A stretch of DNA of 64,000 nucleotides from a phage. Position numbers and translations under genes: made by a program. The notes under the pieces were generated by a model. That model saw nothing but the letters and a program-made list of their open reading frames with translations. It had not been told where the DNA came from and ran no database searches. The stretch lies in the NCBI GenBank assembly GCA_012338575.1, contig GCA_012338575.1_3616.1. One strand, 5' to 3'. Below, in pieces: positions 37,494-55,608 of this stretch. Numbering within the stretch: position 1 is the first letter of the stretch; each line of letters starts with the position of its first letter.

Positions 37494-38087
37494 TCAAATA
37501 CCTTCTAAAAACTTTCCTATTTTATACCAGCTGTTAGCGGTATAGTCAACACTGACCTTTAACTCCTCGAATTGCTCATAAGGCGTATCTTTTAGGATTT
37601 TAATAACTTCAGGTCGTGAAGCGAATTGGTTCAGGTATTCATGCCTGTCGTCAATTATAACATCTACAGCCACATTTCCTTTGAAATGTGTGGCGTAGAA
37701 GCCGTGACCCTGGGTGTGATCGTCCAGATCCATAAAATCACTGGTCCAACGCTTTAAGAACCTTGATTTAGATGCAAGGTGACCTTTCTTGCATACCGAG
37801 ATAAATGCAAGCTTGTGACCACGAGCCACCAAATCTTTCATAACCTCAATAGCCCCCTCTTCGGGCTTAAGAAAGTCGTAGAGGAACGGGTCACTCCAGA
37901 AATCAAAAGGCCCTATGATGTTTTCTTTGGGGCGATCAGGCCAATACTTTGACAGATCGTAATACATTAACCCATTAGAAGGTTTAGCGACTGTCTTACT
38001 GGCTGGACCATACAAACGCTCCAACCACTCCCACCATGCTGTTCCTGAGTCTACCAGTGTCAGATCTACATCAATTCCGATTAACAT
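37494..38087 (-). CDS. HAD-superfamily phosphatase (possible 5'(3')-deoxyribonucleotidase)
   Basis: N-terminal IGIDVDLTLVDSG matches HAD motif I (DxDxT). Confidence 0.45.
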   Translation of the reverse strand: MLIGIDVDLTLVDSGTAWWEWLERLYGPASKTVAKPSNGLMYYDLSKYWPDRPKENIIGPFDFWSDPFLYDFLKPEEGAIEVMKDLVARGHKLAFISVCKKGHLASKSRFLKRWTSDFMDLDDHTQGHGFYATHFKGNVAVDVIIDDRHEYLNQFASRPEVIKILKDTPYEQFEELKVSVDYTANSWYKIGKFLEGI

Positions 38088-46009: not shown

Positions 46010-47293
46010 TTATTCCAGCACCTCCCAAGTGTCTGGGTTAACATTTCGGACGCAGATACCGACAGGGAATTGGTAGTTGTTGTCTTCTGTCCTTGCTTGA
46101 TATTTGAAGGTGACAAACTTGCCGATCATTTCCTGCATTCTGTCATAGCTACGCTCCTCGTGCGTACCTTTCATCTTCATTTTAACAACAATACCTTCCT
46201 TGTCAACACAGATAAGAACACCTTCATCATTCTTATCTTTCTCAACGTCAATAACTTTCACCTCTGCGTCGTTGAACTTTTTCCATTTCAATGCTTCAGA
46301 TGTTCGCTGACCGTACTCGTATTTACCGCAGAAATTACGCATGATAGTACCTTCATATCCTTCGGACATGAATATACCAACAGATTCTTCGCAATGATCA
46401 ACTGTGTACGCAAGCTCTGCGTCAACAACCTTGATATGGTCAAGCATCAGAGTGGTAACGGTATCCTCTGCATCCATAAGATCCTTGCAGCGTCCAGACT
46501 CTGTTTCTGGATCCCACCACACCTTGTCGCTAGGAATATCAAAAATGTGATACTCAAGATCGTAGCTACAGTACCCACCGTAACGCAAATCATCACGAAC
46601 AGGCTCAACATCGACAGGAATATCTACCTTGTTGAAGTTTTTGTATGTTGATAAGCCTGCCTTAATTGCGGCATGACGGCGTTTTTTATCTGCCTCATAG
46701 TCTTTATCGATCTCGGCCTGAATCTCTTCCTGTGTGCGCCACCGTTTAGCAAGAGACACTATTTTCTGCAAAGGAAGACCATGAATGTATAGTTCCCCAT
46801 CAAGTTGTTTAATCCCAGTGGTAGAATGGAAAGAACGAAGTTGCTCTAAAAGCTTTCCTTGAATAGGGTAGGACTTATTACCACGGGAAATAAATTTAGG
46901 CTCACCATTTTGGAAAACAACAAGCAGACGAAGGCCATCTAACTTACGCAAGATCCAGCAAGGTAGTTTAAGTGCCTTGCCACGCTTCAGGTAGTCATGC
47001 ACCAGCATGGGTAAAAGATCAACACCCTGCTCGCAATCTTCCATGTTTTCAACATACCCCAGACGGACTTGTTTTTCCCACTTGCTGATAGCCTCAAGCT
47101 CGGCCTGTTGCTCAGCGGTAGTCTCATTGGCACGACCTACGTTCTTAGGTGTGCATACCGTCTCTTTGTACTGCAATTTACCGTCAAGCTTGCCAAACTC
47201 TACGATAACCTTTTCGCCATCAGTGAATACTTTCCACTGTTGGTAGCTGCCATCTTTGTTCAGTGCGTACAGTGTTGTTTTGATTTGATGCAT
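46010..47293 (-). CDS. ATP-dependent DNA ligase-like nucleotidyltransferase
   Basis: Motif I RKLDGLR (KxDGxR), motif IV EGTIMR, motif V LKWKKF. Confidence 0.6.
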   Translation of the reverse strand: MHQIKTTLYALNKDGSYQQWKVFTDGEKVIVEFGKLDGKLQYKETVCTPKNVGRANETTAEQQAELEAISKWEKQVRLGYVENMEDCEQGVDLLPMLVHDYLKRGKALKLPCWILRKLDGLRLLVVFQNGEPKFISRGNKSYPIQGKLLEQLRSFHSTTGIKQLDGELYIHGLPLQKIVSLAKRWRTQEEIQAEIDKDYEADKKRRHAAIKAGLSTYKNFNKVDIPVDVEPVRDDLRYGGYCSYDLEYHIFDIPSDKVWWDPETESGRCKDLMDAEDTVTTLMLDHIKVVDAELAYTVDHCEESVGIFMSEGYEGTIMRNFCGKYEYGQRTSEALKWKKFNDAEVKVIDVEKDKNDEGVLICVDKEGIVVKMKMKGTHEERSYDRMQEMIGKFVTFKYQARTEDNNYQFPVGICVRNVNPDTWEVLE

Positions 47294-47887: not shown

Positions 47888-47912
47888 ATAAGTAAAGCCG
47901 GGATCACCCGGC
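47888..47912 (-). terminator. hairpin terminator (leftward)
   Basis: GCCGGG-tgat-CCCGGC followed by TTTACTTATT on minus strand. Confidence 0.5.
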
Positions 47913-47919
47913 TATGTTG

Positions 47920-48633
47920 TCAAATATACTCTGTTACATCCTTGAAGCTCGAAGGCTTCATAATCTTACCTTTGCTGTCAAGGAATATAATAACTTTATT
48001 GCCGTTGTAGAACTCCTCTTTAGCAACGAAACCTTCGTAGCGACCACCAAAACGACGCTCAAGATCTTTAATCTCCAACTCGATGAGTTGTTCAGCAGGC
48101 ATATCTGCACTGGCACCGTGTGAATGCCGTAGATGGTTGATCCGCGCAAACTTACTGTCATTAGATTTGAGAACCTTCCGCATCATCCCACACACATCCC
48201 CGCTAAGCTGGAACAGCAAAGCTGTTGATAACTCCGCTAGTCGGTAAGCAGACGCTTTTTGCTTTGGTGTGTTTTTAGCAGCGATCAGTGTATCATAGAA
48301 CTCCCCAATCTTAAACTTAATATCTCGCGAATTATCAAACAGACTTGTCCACTTTTCGTAGTTATCGTTGACAAGATAAGCGGCATAACTTGTAACAACG
48401 TGCAGATCACAGGCCTCTTTTAGCAGGTGATCTCCACCATCACCTTTCTCCAACTCTTCAAGAACCTCATTAAACTCTTCTTCAATAAAACTGAGCTGGA
48501 GTTCGAATGGTGTGTATGATTTTTTCACTTTAGCTGCTACACGGTTCCAATTTTCCACCCAACTGGCAGACCAAAGGTAGTTTTCTGGCTGAGACAGTTT
48601 TTCCAGGTTGTCGATCAGTTTAGTATTTAGCAT
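47920..48633 (-). CDS. possible MazG-like nucleotide pyrophosphohydrolase
   Basis: FIEEEFNEVLEELEKGD...LKEACDL acidic helix pattern reminiscent of MazG EExxE motifs; weak. Confidence 0.35.
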   Translation of the reverse strand: MLNTKLIDNLEKLSQPENYLWSASWVENWNRVAAKVKKSYTPFELQLSFIEEEFNEVLEELEKGDGGDHLLKEACDLHVVTSYAAYLVNDNYEKWTSLFDNSRDIKFKIGEFYDTLIAAKNTPKQKASAYRLAELSTALLFQLSGDVCGMMRKVLKSNDSKFARINHLRHSHGASADMPAEQLIELEIKDLERRFGGRYEGFVAKEEFYNGNKVIIFLDSKGKIMKPSSFKDVTEYI

Positions 48634-48647
48634 TAAAAGGTCACCTC

Positions 48648-49409
48648 TTACAGTTCCATAAAGTTTTCTACAGTTTCAATAAATGCTTTATCAGAGAAAG
48701 CGTCAACAGCACCGTTAAACCATACAGGGATCCCGCGATCCTCATATTGATAAAGGTCGCTACGTGAAATGCCACTTCCATCTGCACTCTGCGAATCATA
48801 CTTGTTTACAATCAGCAGTTTTGTGCCTTTACAAGTAGCAGGAAACAATTCCCAGTTAAAATTAATAACTGTGTTAGAACAACCTACCAGGATCACCATA
48901 TCATTGCTGGTAAGAGATGTCAACAGGTCATACATGTCTGTATACTTAGGAGCAACCTCACCGAAGAACACTACATTGGGCTTAACCCAGGTATACTTGC
49001 CTGTATCTACCTCCGTGTACCCTATATTTTTAATTACATCATTACCTTCAGCATCTTCATAGGTGATTTCAGGCAAATACCCGTGGACATGTAAAATATC
49101 TTCATGTTTTACACCAGCACGCTCCAGCAAATCATCTACATTGGTGGTCAGGTTGATCACACGACCAGACCAGCGGGAATACCACTCAGCGATCCGGAGA
49201 TGTGCAAGGTTAGGATCAACACTGCCCAGAGCTACACGACGTGCATTGTAAAAGTCATGCACCTTATAGTAGTTCTTGGCGAAGGTGTGGATGTTGCACA
49301 CCTCATCTATGCTGAAATTCTCCCACATTGCAGTACTACCAGATCGGAAAGTGGGAATACCAGATTCAGCGCTCAAACCAGCACCGGAGATAATAATCAG
49401 TCGTCGCAT
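48648..49409 (-). CDS. Sir2-family NAD-dependent deacylase-like protein
   Basis: ISGAGLSAESGIPTFR (GAGxS..GIPxFR), TTNVDDL (cf. TQNxDxL) and HVHG motifs. Confidence 0.7.
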   Translation of the reverse strand: MRRLIIISGAGLSAESGIPTFRSGSTAMWENFSIDEVCNIHTFAKNYYKVHDFYNARRVALGSVDPNLAHLRIAEWYSRWSGRVINLTTNVDDLLERAGVKHEDILHVHGYLPEITYEDAEGNDVIKNIGYTEVDTGKYTWVKPNVVFFGEVAPKYTDMYDLLTSLTSNDMVILVGCSNTVINFNWELFPATCKGTKLLIVNKYDSQSADGSGISRSDLYQYEDRGIPVWFNGAVDAFSDKAFIETVENFMEL

Positions 49410-49417
49410 AAGTGCCC

Positions 49418-49768
49418 TCAGTAGATGTTTTGTTTAATCTCTATTCCAAACTTTTTAAACGAGTCAGCTGCAAGCATGAATTTACGAGCCGCTGATGGAT
49501 TAGAAGTATGTACGAAAATCTTCACGTTGTCAACCACGGGAGGCTTACCGAATACAAATTTTTCCTCCAACATGGATAGGCAATCGTATCCTTCGAATAC
49601 TTCTCCTAGGTCGTTGTCCATATGCCACTCAGAAACGCGTCTGTAGAGCTTTCCCTTATCGTTAATAAAATCCATAAACTCGGAGGAATTCTTCAGCCAA
49701 ACAGCGTCTGGGAGCCCGTAATTTGACGGATCTCTTAAGTCATCTAGCCACACAATCAACTTCTTCAT
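49418..49768 (-). CDS. hypothetical protein (116 aa) between Sir2-like and ligase-like genes
   Basis: ORF; no family recognised. Confidence 0.45.
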   Translation of the reverse strand: MKKLIVWLDDLRDPSNYGLPDAVWLKNSSEFMDFINDKGKLYRRVSEWHMDNDLGEVFEGYDCLSMLEEKFVFGKPPVVDNVKIFVHTSNPSAARKFMLAADSFKKFGIEIKQNIY

Positions 49769-50700
49769 TGCATATAGTTCTCGTTGTGGAAATAGTAATC
49801 AAGTATCTCACGGCGTTCCTGCTCCAGGAGGCAGTTCCACACATCCTCTGTGTAATTGCTACGAATGAAGTTTACCATGCCGTAAAACTCTTCGTCAACA
49901 CGTTTAAAGATATCATCATCCCAAATCTTCCAAGCTTTACCCCTCATTACGGCCTTCCGTGCCAGATAGTATGGAGACTTGATCTTCAGCTGCAGATCAT
50001 AAGGGTAGTAAGGCTTACGAATCATATACCCTTCACCTCTTGTTTCTGCAGCTAATTCTTTTGCATAGCTGAACGGAATTTCACGCACAGTGTGAGGACG
50101 TTTTGCACCAAGGTATTTGGCAATCCCATCTAAAGCTGCTTCTGGTAGCATTATTCCAGAATCATTATATCTGCAACCTATCAAATATGCGCCATGATCT
50201 TCCTGAACAATATGCGGATCTGAAGGGTGACAAATTTCAAACATGAATGTCATGTTTTCATTGCCCATAACCTTCTTGATAAGATCTAAATTACCACATT
50301 GCTCTTGGATGGTTTCCTTTGCAAGGTTACAATATGGAGAATCAAGAGACCCGGTTGTTGAGAACAATAGTTCACCTTTATGAGATGATACCACACCGAG
50401 GAATCCGTTCTTTTTCTCTACCGCAGTAACAAGTTTACTGTCCGGTAGGTTGGTGGAGTTTTCTCCTAAGTTGAATACTTTTGTGAAAGGCCATGCCACA
50501 ACATTCCCCTCATTGCCAACAACAATACCTCGGCACTCCAGTAAACGCGGAGACAAATGCCACAGATTGTTGTAGAATACTTTTCTGGCATATTTATAGA
50601 TCTTTAATCCAAGATCTGGATAATACCGACTGGTTACAAGACCTTTGTCTACTAGGTCATCTGCATTAAAATACTTCATCATACGTTCCTCATTTGTCAT
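49765..50700 (-). CDS. RNA-ligase-like nucleotidyltransferase (Rnl2-like motifs)
   Basis: Motif I EKKNGFLG (KxNG), motif IV GEGYMIRKPYYPYD (cf. recalled T4 Rnl2 EGYVLKPCYP), motif V LKIKSPYY. Confidence 0.5.
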   Translation of the reverse strand: MTNEERMMKYFNADDLVDKGLVTSRYYPDLGLKIYKYARKVFYNNLWHLSPRLLECRGIVVGNEGNVVAWPFTKVFNLGENSTNLPDSKLVTAVEKKNGFLGVVSSHKGELLFSTTGSLDSPYCNLAKETIQEQCGNLDLIKKVMGNENMTFMFEICHPSDPHIVQEDHGAYLIGCRYNDSGIMLPEAALDGIAKYLGAKRPHTVREIPFSYAKELAAETRGEGYMIRKPYYPYDLQLKIKSPYYLARKAVMRGKAWKIWDDDIFKRVDEEFYGMVNFIRSNYTEDVWNCLLEQERREILDYYFHNENYMQ

Positions 50701-50800
50701 TTTGTCAGTCTATCCTGCCACACAAATAACCTAGTGTCAACACTTGAAATTAACAAAACAGTTAGGTATACTATCATTAAAATTAAAACGGAGGATTGCT

Positions 50801-51211
50801 ATGTCTAAAATGCTATATATCGTGCGTGGTCTGCCAGGGTCTGGCAAATCAACACTGGCAAATGCGCTATCTTTAGAAGGTCTGTATCCACATTTTGAGA
50901 ACGACATGTTCTGGTATGACGATGACGGCAATTACAACTGGGATGCAAGTAAAGTAACACTCGCAGCAAAATGGTGCAAAGATAACGTAGAAGATATGAT
51001 GCGTATGGGATACGACCGTATCGTGGTAAGTAATACGTTTACAAAAGAAAAACATGTGCAGGAATATGTTGACATGGCAATCAGTCACGGGTATAGTTAT
51101 ACCGTGATCGTGGTTGAAAACCGCCACGGTAATAAAAGCATTCATGATGTTCCAGACAAGGTTGTGGATCGTATGGAACGCCAGCTTAAAAACTGCATTA
51201 AACTTAAATGA
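50801..51211 (+). CDS. P-loop polynucleotide-kinase-like kinase
   Basis: ATG 50801 after GGAGG; LYIVRGLPGSGKSTLAN resembles recalled T4 Pnk kinase IILTIGCPGSGKSTWA. Confidence 0.5.
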   Translation: MSKMLYIVRGLPGSGKSTLANALSLEGLYPHFENDMFWYDDDGNYNWDASKVTLAAKWCKDNVEDMMRMGYDRIVVSNTFTKEKHVQEYVDMAISHGYSYTVIVVENRHGNKSIHDVPDKVVDRMERQLKNCIKLK

Positions 51212-51218
51212 GGAATGT

Positions 51219-51773
51219 ATGAAATACTTTGTAACAAGCGACACACACTTTCTCCACCAGCGGGTCATGGAGTTTGATTCATGTCAAAAACACAGATCTC
51301 AGTATGATCACAATCTTGACAGTATGAATGCGGGAATCATCGCCGAGTGGAACTCTGTTGTGTCACCTGCAGACACTGTGTTTCACTTGGGAGATATTGC
51401 GTGCACTAATGATAAGAATATCAACAAATTGCTCCCAGATGTTCTAAATATGTTGAACGGACATATTATTCTTGTTCGTGGTAACCATGACACAAGGACG
51501 ACTGTCAGAATTATGAAAGAGTTCGGTCATGATGTTGTAGATTATTACGAGCTTCGCCACAACAAGAATTTGATCTGTATGAGCCATTACCAGTTTGCAA
51601 AGTGGAACAGAAAGCCTCACGGATCAGTCCAACTGTTCGGTCATGCTCACGGAACCACACAGCAGTTGTTTGGCAGGCAGTTTGATGTCGGTTGGGATGT
51701 GTGGGGGAGACTCTTACCATTAGAAGAGGCATACCGTATTGCAATGAGTCTTGCTATTGACAGCGGGGAGTAA
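51219..51773 (+). CDS. calcineurin-like metallophosphoesterase
   Basis: ATG 51219 after GAGGAA; motifs SDTHF, HLGDI, LVRGNHD, GHAHGT. Confidence 0.6.
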   Translation: MKYFVTSDTHFLHQRVMEFDSCQKHRSQYDHNLDSMNAGIIAEWNSVVSPADTVFHLGDIACTNDKNINKLLPDVLNMLNGHIILVRGNHDTRTTVRIMKEFGHDVVDYYELRHNKNLICMSHYQFAKWNRKPHGSVQLFGHAHGTTQQLFGRQFDVGWDVWGRLLPLEEAYRIAMSLAIDSGE

Positions 51774-51820
51774 TCCCTGCTATTTTAAAGAAAATTGCCA
51801 CACAAGGAGAATCAGGAGAT

Positions 51821-52171
51821 ATGAAAGATGGGGATAAGCTGCTATATCTTAAAGTCCCCCTTGAAATACTGTCTATGTCAAAAGTTTTGAATGACACAAC
51901 TGGGGAGGCTGTTGTTCTTGACTTATATGACAAGATCGTATACTGCTACCTGCACAACTGGTATAAGCTTGGAGGAAATTCACGCTTCACACCAAGCACA
52001 AGGAAAATTGCAGCAGATGTTGGGATAAAGAAAACAAAAGCAGCAGCGTGCGTTAAAACTTTAGAATGTGCAGGAGTGGTTGAAATATCCACACAAGGGA
52101 GAGGTAAAAGATGTACATTTTCCAAAGTTTTGCCACCAGAAGAGGTTATTCGAATGTCAACAACTGGTTAG
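51821..52171 (+). CDS. putative DNA-binding protein (HTH-like)
   Basis: TRKIAADVGIKKTKAAACVKTLECAGVV helix-turn-helix-like segment; adjacent to tandem palindromic repeats. Confidence 0.4.
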   Translation: MKDGDKLLYLKVPLEILSMSKVLNDTTGEAVVLDLYDKIVYCYLHNWYKLGGNSRFTPSTRKIAADVGIKKTKAAACVKTLECAGVVEISTQGRGKRCTFSKVLPPEEVIRMSTTG

Positions 52172-52242
52172 ACCAGTAAAAACTTAAATATCTGTACTAT
52201 AAGGATTCGTATGTTTTATGTTCGCTCTGGAACAGAGGTCAG

Positions 52243-54668: not shown

Positions 54669-54743
54669 GCCCTGTTAGCTTAGTGGATAAAGCAGCGGCC
54701 TTCTAAGCCGTTGACACTGGTTCGAGTCCAGTACGGGGTGCCA
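54669..54743 (+). tRNA. tRNA-Arg (anticodon TCT)
   Basis: Manually folded cloverleaf: acceptor GCCCTGT/ACGGGGT, D-arm GCTT-AGTGGATA-AAGC, anticodon loop CTTCTAA, T-arm ACTGG-TTCGAGT-CCAGT, CCA encoded. Confidence 0.8.
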
Positions 54744-54873
54744 AGTTCTTTTTAATGTAGCTTACTTTAGCAGAGTAAATCTTCGGCAAGTGGCGGTAAC
54801 CACTTTACCGATACCTCATAGTTAGTGGTGAGAACACTAGCTATTTTAAAAAGAATTTAAATATTAGTATTTA

Positions 54874-54961
54874 GGTGAGTTAATTCCGTAGGGGTAGCGG
54901 GGCAGACTGTAAATCTGTTATCATTGCGATTCGGGTGGTTCGACTCCATCACTCACCACCA
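54874..54961 (+). tRNA. tRNA-Tyr (anticodon GTA), long variable arm
   Basis: Acceptor GGTGAGT/ACTCACC, anticodon loop CTGTAAA, T-loop GGTTCGACTCC, CCA encoded; 85 nt plus CCA. Confidence 0.8.
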
Positions 54962-55075
54962 AATTTATATTTTTAAATGCATAAATCATACAGGTAATGG
55001 CATTGATATTTATCGTCGTTTATACTAGTCACTAACTGCTCGAAAATCAGTGTCATTATCAGTATTGTTTATAAA

Positions 55076-55166
55076 AGAGGGTAGGGAGCAATGGTGCTCA
55101 AGCGGTCTTGAAAACCGTCCCGTTGAGGATGACTCGATGATGGTTCGATTCCATTATCCTCTGCCA
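55076..55166 (+). tRNA. tRNA-Ser (anticodon TGA), long variable arm
   Basis: Acceptor AGAGGGT/ATCCTCT, anticodon loop CTTGAAA, T-arm GATGG-TTCGATT-CCATT, CCA encoded. Confidence 0.75.
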
Positions 55167-55264
55167 TATTGTTGACCTTGTAATTAAGCGAAAGCCGGAA
55201 GCAGAACCGGATTATCAAATGTTACAGTCGTCATCGCCGACTAGCAACATGGTCAACATACTGA

Positions 55265-55361
55265 GCTAGGTAAGCCCTTTGGCAAGGGCGAGGATTTTTA
55301 ATCCTGAAAATAGACGAGGTAGTCGTTGAATACATAGGTGGTTCGATTCCATCACCTAGCA
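55265..55361 (+). other. aberrant tRNA-like element (canonical acceptor, D- and T-arms; anticodon region replaced/expanded)
   Basis: Acceptor GCTAGGT/ACCTAGC, D-arm GCCC-TTTGGCAA-GGGC, T-arm GGTGG-TTCGATT-CCATC, but middle is AGGATT-TTT-AATCCT hairpin plus about 30 extra nt; no encoded CCA. Confidence 0.4.
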
Positions 55362-55368
55362 CCTTTTT

Positions 55369-55444
55369 GCTGATGTAGCACAATTGGTAGTGCAATTGAT
55401 TTGTAATCAATAGGTTGCAGGTTCAAGTCCTGCCATCAGCACCA
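55369..55444 (+). tRNA. tRNA-Thr (anticodon TGT)
   Basis: Acceptor GCTGATG/CATCAGC, D-arm GCAC-AATTGGTA-GTGC, anticodon stem ATTGA/TCAAT loop TTTGTAA, T-arm GCAGG-TTCAAGT-CCTGC, CCA. Confidence 0.85.
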
Positions 55445-55445
55445 T

Positions 55446-55520
55446 GGCCCTGTAGCTGGAAGGTTCAAGCAAGCGACTCATAATCGCCAGACGGTGGTTC
55501 AATTCCACCCAGGGCCACCA
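55446..55520 (+). tRNA. tRNA-Met (anticodon CAT; elongator or Ile2-type)
   Basis: Acceptor GGCCCTG/CAGGGCC, anticodon loop CTCATAA, T-arm GGTGG-TTCAATT-CCACC, CCA; paired 1:72 argues against initiator. Confidence 0.75.
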
Positions 55521-55531
55521 AATAGTAAATA

Positions 55532-55608
55532 CTCCGCGTAGCTCAGCTTGGTAGAGCGCCTGATTTGGGATCAGGAGGTCGAGTGTTCGAATCACTCCGT
55601 GGAGACCA
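55532..55608 (+). tRNA. tRNA-Pro (anticodon TGG)
   Basis: Acceptor CTCCGCG/CGTGGAG, D-arm GCTC-AGCTTGGTA-GAGC, anticodon stem CCTGA/TCAGG loop TTTGGGA, T-arm GAGTG-TTCGAAT-CACTC, CCA. Confidence 0.85.

Follow-up and report, generated by a model that had tools for sequence, protein, structure and literature searches.

A divergent ligase and kinase-phosphoesterase locus of an rV5-like phage as a probable multi-polypeptide RNA heal-and-seal module

Do a ligase, a small kinase and a phosphoesterase encoded side by side in a phage genome form a system for the repair of cleaved RNA and, if so, of which kind? The question is raised by positions 49,765 to 51,773 of a 64,000-nucleotide stretch of phage DNA (GenBank assembly GCA_012338575.1, contig GCA_012338575.1_3616.1; hereafter the window), where an earlier annotation made by a model from the letters alone (the sequence-only reading) had proposed a split set of bacterial Pnkp-type RNA repair genes. 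From the families and folds of the three proteins, their motifs, their operon structure and their linkage across phages, we consider it likely that they constitute a multi-polypeptide RNA heal-and-seal module, which would act stepwise on broken RNA ends and may serve in counter-defense. A 2.8-kb query around the gene set is 99.9% identical to Escherichia phage phiWec189, 99.8% identical to phage PDX and 93-98% identical to more than 100 further rV5-like phages of the genus Vequintavirus, and we assign the window to an rV5-like Vequintavirus, i.e., a phage of E. coli. The three genes in question are the following:

49765 to 50700, minus strand: predicted Rnl1-type ATP-dependent RNA ligase, 311 amino acids (Pfam RNA_lig_T4_1)
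50801 to 51211, plus strand: stand-alone P-loop kinase of the polynucleotide 5'-kinase clade, 136 amino acids (Pfam AAA_33)
51219 to 51773, plus strand: small calcineurin-type metallophosphoesterase, putative RNA 3'-end healing enzyme, 184 amino acids (Pfam Metallophos_2 and Metallophos)

All three open reading frames and each motif that the sequence-only reading had quoted are found where it had placed them, and the Pfam matches (RNA_lig_T4_1 for the ligase, AAA_33 for the kinase, Metallophos and Metallophos_2 for the phosphoesterase) lie far beyond chance. The ligase contains EKKNGF at residues 95-100, EGYMIRKPYYPYD at 223-235 and LKIKSPYY at 238-245, with the catalytic Lys96 in KKNG, motif III at E155, motif IV at E223-G224 and motif V at K239/K241. 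Its match to RNA_lig_T4_1 (PF09511) covers the whole profile (1-227) at E=9e-15 and 55.5 bits against a cut-off of 28.3, and PHROGs places it in the T4 gp63/Rnl1 family (phrog_562, E=4e-66). For comparison with the PDB we used profiles of diverse homologues; single-sequence searches were uninformative for the ligase and the kinase. The profile of nine diverse ligase homologues matches T4 Rnl1 (2C5U) at E=3e-26 over T4 residues 46-284, followed by Rnl3-type enzymes at 1e-5 to 1e-7. Residues R57, K74, F76, K96, G99, E155, E223, G224, K239 and K241 are invariant in an alignment of 41 sequences and align with R54, K75, F77, K99, G102, E159, E227, G228, K240 and K242 of T4 Rnl1, respectively; mutagenesis by the Shuman laboratory has marked Arg54, Lys75, Phe77 and Lys119 of the T4 enzyme as essential. 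The sequence-only reading had called this protein closest to Rnl2-type ligases. We reject that assignment, since the Pfam search gave no match to the Rnl2 family (PF09414) and fold and profile are closest to T4 Rnl1, not Rnl2; no Rnl2 chain appeared in the search of the profile against the PDB either. We classify the protein as an enzyme of the Rnl1/Trl1 clade for which RNA joining is predicted.

Near-identical phage records label this ligase as "RNA ligase (1) and tail attachment protein", and the wording "RNA ligase and tail fiber protein attachment catalyst" has been copied through databases from T4 gp63, which has such a second activity. One could conclude from these labels that the ligase is mainly a tail fiber attachment factor and that its linkage to the kinase and phosphoesterase is incidental. 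We find this exceedingly improbable, given that the gene lies among early and nucleotide-metabolism genes rather than tail genes, that its linkage to the kinase is near-universal, and that the nucleotidyl-transferase residues are all invariant in a large family, which argues for selection on catalysis.

For the kinase, the most convincing start is ATG 50801, which follows a Shine-Dalgarno sequence (GGAGGA, 50791-50796) at six bases and agrees with annotated relatives. The protein matches AAA_33 at E=1e-10 and carries the P-loop GLPGSGKST at residues 10-18 (G10-T18) besides D35 as putative general base, an invariant N78 and R108. Both GxxGxGK(S/T) at 10-17 and D35 are invariant in its family, and D35 aligns with the general base D35 of T4 polynucleotide kinase (Pnk). 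The profile of the kinase family finds T4 polynucleotide kinase (1LTQ) as its best match across the entire kinase domain (E=3.6e-6), followed by Capnocytophaga Pnkp1 (7e-6) and the kinase domain of Clostridium thermocellum Pnkp (2.7e-3). The top matches by fold as well as by sequence profile are polynucleotide kinases, as the earlier description of the protein as Pnk-like had anticipated. A T4-type polynucleotide kinase (PNK) of a Streptomyces phage matches the window kinase directly (E=6.6e-7). Database labels in near-identical records range from "ATPase" over "polynucleotide kinase" to "3'-phosphatase, 5'-polynucleotide kinase". We place the protein in the polynucleotide kinase clade with RNA 5' ends as its putative substrate.

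The third gene, simply labeled "phosphoesterase" in near-identical records, has its best start at ATG 51219, 7 nt past the kinase stop codon, again in agreement with annotated relatives. Its assignment to the calcineurin-type metallophosphoesterases holds up well: SDTHF (DxH), LGDIA (GD), GNHD, GHAHG (GHxH) and the motif IV histidine in MSHY are all present, the five motifs are invariant in eight diverse homologues (D8xH10, G58D59, G88N89H90, H123, G141H142xH144), and the Pfam cut-offs are passed by Metallophos_2 (E=1.4e-6) as well as by Metallophos (E=6e-6). In PHROGs, the protein matches phrog_547 at E=7.5e-51. We reject a Pnkp or lambda-phosphatase type, of which the profile search found no representative at E<=0.1; weak matches were to GpdQ, Rv0805 and Icc.

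Whether the three genes belong together can be judged from their company in other phages. By tblastn, 765 phage records have the ligase and 622 have the kinase, and the numbers per genus are nearly the same (ligase/kinase: Escherichia 199/198, Pseudomonas 177/173, Vibrio 83/89, Klebsiella 37/36, Acinetobacter 24/24), and the protein collection holds at least 4,379 relatives of the ligase and at least 7,771 of the kinase. Seven annotated representatives (from Seunavirus, Phapecoctavirus, Mydovirus, Pakpunavirus, Thalassavirus, Otagovirus and an Acinetobacter phage) encode all three proteins in the same direction and no more than some 3 kb apart. We then surveyed 80 loci on IMG/VR viral contigs that encode ligase relatives by searching their open reading frames with hidden Markov models of the families. 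The small kinase is present in 51 of these loci and accompanied by the phosphoesterase in 46 of the 51, the phosphoesterase being found in 52 of the 80 overall. Another 16 loci, mostly like those of Streptomyces phages, instead carry a T4-type fusion of kinase and HAD phosphatase (AAA_33 + HAD_PNKP), and none of these 16 has the phosphoesterase (small kinase versus HAD-type PNK, Fisher p=2e-11 without correction for phylogeny). Such a complementary distribution is to be expected if the phosphoesterase supplied the 3'-end healing (3'-phosphatase) activity that the small kinase is missing. Kinase and ligase lie a median of 284 nt apart, and gene orders are permuted by lineage while the trio stays contiguous (phosphoesterase-ligase-kinase, ligase-kinase-phosphoesterase, kinase-ligase-phosphoesterase and ligase-phosphoesterase-kinase). 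The two proteins even seem to occur as fusions: phrog_8238 (737 positions) matches the kinase with its N-terminus and the ligase with its C-terminus. A phosphoesterase segment found no match in phrog_8238 even at E<=10, and the best 120 matches listed in the large protein searches were all stand-alone proteins. The functional linkage proposed by the sequence-only reading is well supported by this co-occurrence, adjacency and complementary distribution, which mark the trio as a functional module.

The divergent arrangement noted by the sequence-only reading is real in the window but not general. Kinase and ligase share a strand in 68 of 69 cases and phosphoesterase and ligase in 51 of 52, with the rV5-like locus as the single exception for both. 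The divergent layout is a rearrangement specific to Vequintavirus rather than a design feature, and the genes are co-directional elsewhere.

As an RNA repair module, the three proteins would work as follows. A metal-independent host ribonuclease would cut RNA, most plausibly in the anticodon loop of a tRNA, and leave a 2',3'-cyclic phosphate and a 5'-OH. The metallophosphoesterase would open and remove the 3'-terminal phosphate, possibly assisted in Vequintavirinae by a small protein encoded next to the ligase (cREC, see below), and the Pnk-like kinase would phosphorylate the 5'-OH. The Rnl1-type ligase would finally join 3'-OH to 5'-phosphate via a Lys96-AMP intermediate. Functionally, the most similar known system is the pathway of T4 Pnkp and Rnl1 that counters the PrrC anticodon nuclease, though the 3'-phosphatase of T4 is a HAD domain fused to the kinase whereas the window encodes a separate calcineurin-type metallophosphoesterase, a kinase that is a bare domain of 136 amino acids, and a ligase that is 63 amino acids shorter than its T4 counterpart. 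To our knowledge, T4 is the only phage for which heal-and-seal repair has been shown experimentally. RNA-cutting defenses that target tRNA or mRNA are common and include PrrC, RloC, PARIS, retron-linked PtuAB, Cas13 and toxin RNases.

Several observations weigh against this assignment of activities. The kinase lacks an equivalent of T4 Pnk Arg38 (it has W38, at a position that is variable in the family), and the position of T4 Pnk Asp85 is taken by the invariant Asn78. In the ligase family, an invariant Thr116 (in STTG) stands at the position of T4 Rnl1 Lys119, and the C-terminal domain is much reduced, with just 70 residues after K241 compared with about 130 in T4 Rnl1. The C-terminal domain of T4 Rnl1 (about 120 amino acids) confers tRNA specificity. 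The sole close solved relative of the phosphoesterase found with its family profile is Aquifex aq_1665 (1XM7, E=2e-17), a structural genomics protein without known function, and its distant relatives GpdQ and Rv0805 act on small phosphodiesters. The co-occurrence statistics of our survey ignore shared ancestry, the module often adjoins genes for NAD reconstitution (28 of 80 loci) so that kinase or phosphoesterase might conceivably act on nucleotide metabolites, and literature searches found no biochemical or genetic work on the trio proteins in rV5-like or Pakpunavirus phages. With regard to classification, the NCBIfam equivalog model of T4 RnlA (TIGR02308) is not reached by the ligase (38 bits against a cut-off of 242).

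The comparison with bacterial Pnkp-Hen1 systems (Clostridium thermocellum Pnkp and Capnocytophaga Pnkp1-Rnl-Hen1), from which the sequence-only reading had taken its name for the locus, is looser than with T4. What they have in common is a metallophosphoesterase in place of a HAD phosphatase. However, bacterial Pnkp is a single trifunctional polypeptide, while the window distributes its proteins over three open reading frames on two strands, its ligase is not of the Pnkp type (Rnl4), and its phosphoesterase is not lambda-phosphatase-like. The 72 kb of phage Murica that are homologous include no annotated Hen1 2'-O-methyltransferase; the open reading frames of the window were not all scanned individually. 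We therefore reject membership in the bacterial Pnkp group on ligase type, phosphoesterase type, fused architecture and Hen1, and "Pnkp-like" is apt only by analogy, in terms of activities. Healing and sealing of RNA ends is still the best reading of the set. The earlier interpretation is partly supported: right in outline, wrong on the ligase subtype and loose in its use of Pnkp.

The leftward unit comprises more than the ligase, the only one of its genes that the sequence-only reading had included. Downstream of it lie three further genes that had been missed, as had a published description of the same locus in phage V5, and a terminator-like structure:

49418 to 49768, minus strand: cREC (cyclic-phosphate-processing receiver-like) protein, 116 amino acids (PF20274, E=1.5e-14; phrog_1479), its start overlapping the ligase stop codon (ATGA)
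48648 to 49409, minus strand: Sir2-family protein, 253 amino acids (Pfam SIR2, E=7e-28; phrog_2162, E=1.5e-108), 8 nt past cREC
47920 to 48633, minus strand: MazG-like nucleotide pyrophosphohydrolase, 237 amino acids (phrog_671, E=4.6e-21), 14 nt past Sir2
47896 to 47913, minus strand: intrinsic-terminator-like hairpin AGCCGGG-TGAT-CCCGGCT with a T-rich tail, found by terminator scan and annotated likewise in Murica

These genes form a leftward four-gene operon that begins with the ligase, ends with the MazG-like gene and is closed by the hairpin at 47896-47913. In phages PVP-SE1 and Mydo, cREC sits between ligase and kinase. The MazG-like protein had no match in the Pfam search; its gene is annotated as a nucleotide pyrophosphohydrolase in Murica and PVP-SE1. 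Of the six proteins of the neighborhood, the kinase alone was matched by PADLOC defense models, and these P-loop matches were weak. Sir2 retains the NAD-binding and catalytic motifs GAGLSAESGIPTFR, TTNVDD and HVHG and has only three cysteines, none of them in CxxC pairs; without the Cys4 zinc module (CxxC...CxxC) it differs from classical protein-deacylase sirtuins.

All six genes at 47920-51773 correspond, in the same locus of the same genus, to the type 2 sirtuin-centered phage RNA-repair neighborhood "prototyped by Escherichia phage V5 and Proteus phage Mydo" of Iyer, Burroughs, Anantharaman and Aravind (2022, Viruses 14:1977), which comprises a sirtuin, a T4-like tRNA ligase, cREC, a nucleotide kinase, MazG and a calcineurin-like phosphoesterase. 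The gene set has thus already been predicted in the literature to serve in RNA repair, its genes are annotated in near-identical genomes, and its presence in the window is an ordinary finding. Iyer et al. called the phosphoesterase "occasional" and proposed that the sirtuin removes 2'-phosphates like KptA. The weighting from our survey is the opposite, with the phosphoesterase as part of the core (46 of 51 small-kinase loci) and the sirtuin as occasional, while the basic prediction is unchanged.

In the yeast-type pathway that follows from the Iyer/Aravind model, cREC would convert the cyclic phosphate into a 2'-phosphate by ring opening, the 5' end would be phosphorylated by the kinase, and the Rnl1/Trl1-like ligase would seal the break and leave a 2'-phosphate at the junction. 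Sir2 would transfer that phosphate to NAD+ like Tpt1/KptA, and the MazG-like protein and phosphoesterase would clear ADP-ribose by-products. We regard this pathway as unlikely. Sir2 occurs in 8 and cREC in 6 of the 80 loci as against 52 for the phosphoesterase, so that most phages would run the module without Sir2, and Phapecoctaviruses encode cREC and the MazG-like protein without Sir2. We also know of no sirtuin that removes 2'-phosphates from RNA. Compared with fungal and plant Trl1 (ligase-kinase-CPDase) plus Tpt1, the window proteins are separate and include neither a 2H domain nor Tpt1/KptA. It is decidedly unlikely, too, that the zinc-less Sir2 of Vequintavirinae is an NAD+-dependent RNA 2'-phosphotransferase, a Tpt1/KptA analogue in eukaryote-style tRNA ligation together with cREC, kinase and ligase, with by-products cleared by the MazG-like protein and the phosphoesterase; such an enzyme would extend the sirtuin fold to a kind of catalysis that is new for it. 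The MazG-like gene is found in 9 of the 80 loci and, like cREC and Sir2, essentially in Vequintavirinae and Phapecoctavirus. We consider these three genes to be lineage-specific accessories of uncertain role around a core of ligase, kinase and phosphoesterase.

The wider neighborhood of the core leads to another alternative. A NAMPT-like gene is present in 28 of the 80 loci and a Prs-like gene in 23, often together with a Macro protein, and these genes correspond to the operon of NARP1/NARP1-AP (Adps, Adpp, Namat), a published and experimentally validated counter-defense system that reconstitutes NAD+. Phage loci with Prs-like and NAMPT-like genes next to the trio, often with a Macro "phosphatase" between or beside them, include the following:

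L002, 637-3199
L004, 220-2767
L005, 8322-11832
L006, 9753-12759
L007, 8906-13491
L008, 12765-14843

The module is thus often located in a counter-defense neighborhood, which fits a counter-defense role for RNA repair. It also fits the view that kinase and phosphoesterase, along with Sir2, cREC and the MazG-like protein, serve in metabolite warfare over NAD+ and ADP-ribose while the ligase is a mere neighbor in a counter-defense island. The cREC, Sir2 and MazG families have been discussed within an NAD-ADPr network (Iyer et al. 2022), and the distant solved relatives of the phosphoesterase hydrolyze small phosphodiesters. We judge this view to be quite improbable. The window itself contains no NAMPT-like or Prs-like gene. 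We note that Acinetobacter phage KissB additionally encodes a true Rnl2-type ligase (PF09414 + T4_Rnl2_C; L008, 11659-12762) beside its Prs-like and NAMPT-like genes, and that Vibrio phage Athena has an extra lambda-phosphatase-like metallophosphoesterase (NinI-like, 249 amino acids; L006, 5938-6687) upstream of its Rnl1-type ligase. Some phages apparently stack several RNA-end-processing enzymes in one region.

The sequence-only reading had also pointed to a nearby tRNA cluster in support of a counter-defense role. The seven tRNA genes of the window (54669-55608; Arg-UCU, Tyr-GUA, Ser-UGA, an atypical 97-nt Lys-UUU-like tRNA, Thr-UGU, Met-CAU and Pro-UGG) lie 2.9 kb downstream on the same strand as kinase and phosphoesterase. 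Among these isoacceptors are several that tRNA-cleaving systems are known to attack, with Lys-UUU being the target of PrrC and PARIS. P2-OLD targets tRNA-Thr(U). The link to the module is weak, as tRNA genes are found within 6 kb in 20 of the 80 loci, with none at that distance for most small-kinase loci, which means that their nearness here is not a conserved feature. The same cluster could suggest that the module acts on RNAs of the phage itself, in the processing of tRNA precursors or in RNA circularization or maturation, or repairs collateral damage of phage nucleases without any counter-defense, and the ligase and PNK of the Streptomyces phage relatives indeed lie within tRNA arrays. This seems very improbable to us in view of the loci without nearby tRNA genes; besides, the anticodon loops of the window tRNAs showed no intron-like break, and no splicing endonuclease is annotated in relatives. 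Two members of the cluster deserve mention:

54874 to 54958, plus strand: tRNA-Tyr(GUA), Rfam 39 bits, missed by ARAGORN
55265 to 55361, plus strand: atypical 97-nt tRNA, Rfam tRNA model 35.5 bits, anticodon loop UUUUUAA (Lys-UUU), 26-nt insertion in the variable region

The atypical tRNA receives no assignment from ARAGORN ("tRNA-???", 4-base anticodon). It is kept in rV5-like phages under inconsistent labels (tRNA-Lys in Mangalyan, "tRNA-OTHER Asp|Gly" in Murica, and in the locus L011 the ARAGORN call obtained here). As a tRNA-Lys(UUU) with a long arm, it might replace the target of PrrC and PARIS with a nuclease-resistant form. In the stretch 54744-54958, the window contains 127 nt more than Murica and Mangalyan, inserted between tRNA-Arg and tRNA-Tyr, and in its tRNA-Tyr the two strands of the acceptor stem and of the anticodon stem have changed in compensating pairs.

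If the RNA repair function of the module is confirmed, it would represent a second, T4-independent architecture of phage RNA repair, assign a function to aq_1665-type phosphoesterases, and predict which phages escape RNA-cleaving defenses. With 600-760 phage genomes, among them phages of Escherichia, Pseudomonas, Vibrio, Klebsiella and Acinetobacter and many therapy candidates, the module is widespread.

How the two transcription units of the window might be controlled can be read from two further elements:

50701 to 50800, no strand: divergent intergenic region of 100 bp, from consensus scan and direct reading
51762 to 51789, plus strand: terminator-like hairpin with an 8-bp stem and GTAA loop followed by ATTTTAAA, from direct reading and annotated likewise in Murica

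On the plus strand, the consensus scan found a promoter-like TTGAAA-17-TATACT at 50744-50772. It found no sigma-70-like promoter for the ligase operon on the minus strand, where by eye a perfect -35 (TTGACA, 50740-50735) stands back to back with the plus-strand -35 and is followed by a poor -10 (CAGGAT). The shared divergent promoter region proposed earlier is hence plausible but only half-supported. The hairpin at 51762-51789 overlaps the phosphoesterase stop codon and closes the two-gene kinase-phosphoesterase unit; it was not called by the terminator scan because of its short T-run.

A few minor observations concern the surroundings and relatives of the locus. A separate DNA ligase at 46010-47293, described as canonical by the sequence-only reading, is confirmed by its Pfam domains (DNA_ligase_A_M and DNA_ligase_OB_2). 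The HAD-fold protein at 37494-38087 on the minus strand, among nucleotide-metabolism genes, matches NT5C-type 5'-deoxynucleotidases (E=4e-6), and we reject it on this ground as a T4-type (PNKP-type) 3'-phosphatase. Around 20 unannotated "Campylobacter phage" records (GenBank MG065644-MG065690) are 97-98% identical to E. coli rV5-like phages in this region, and their host labels look doubtful. The third rightward gene (51821-52171) encodes an HTH_36 protein that is called "replication initiation protein" in relatives. The divergent intergenic region forms the junction between a leftward block of replication and nucleotide metabolism genes and a rightward block of tRNA, lysis and structural genes, and GC skew flips there from negative to positive. 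This flip (ca. 50000-52200) may reflect gene orientation or may mark a replication origin.

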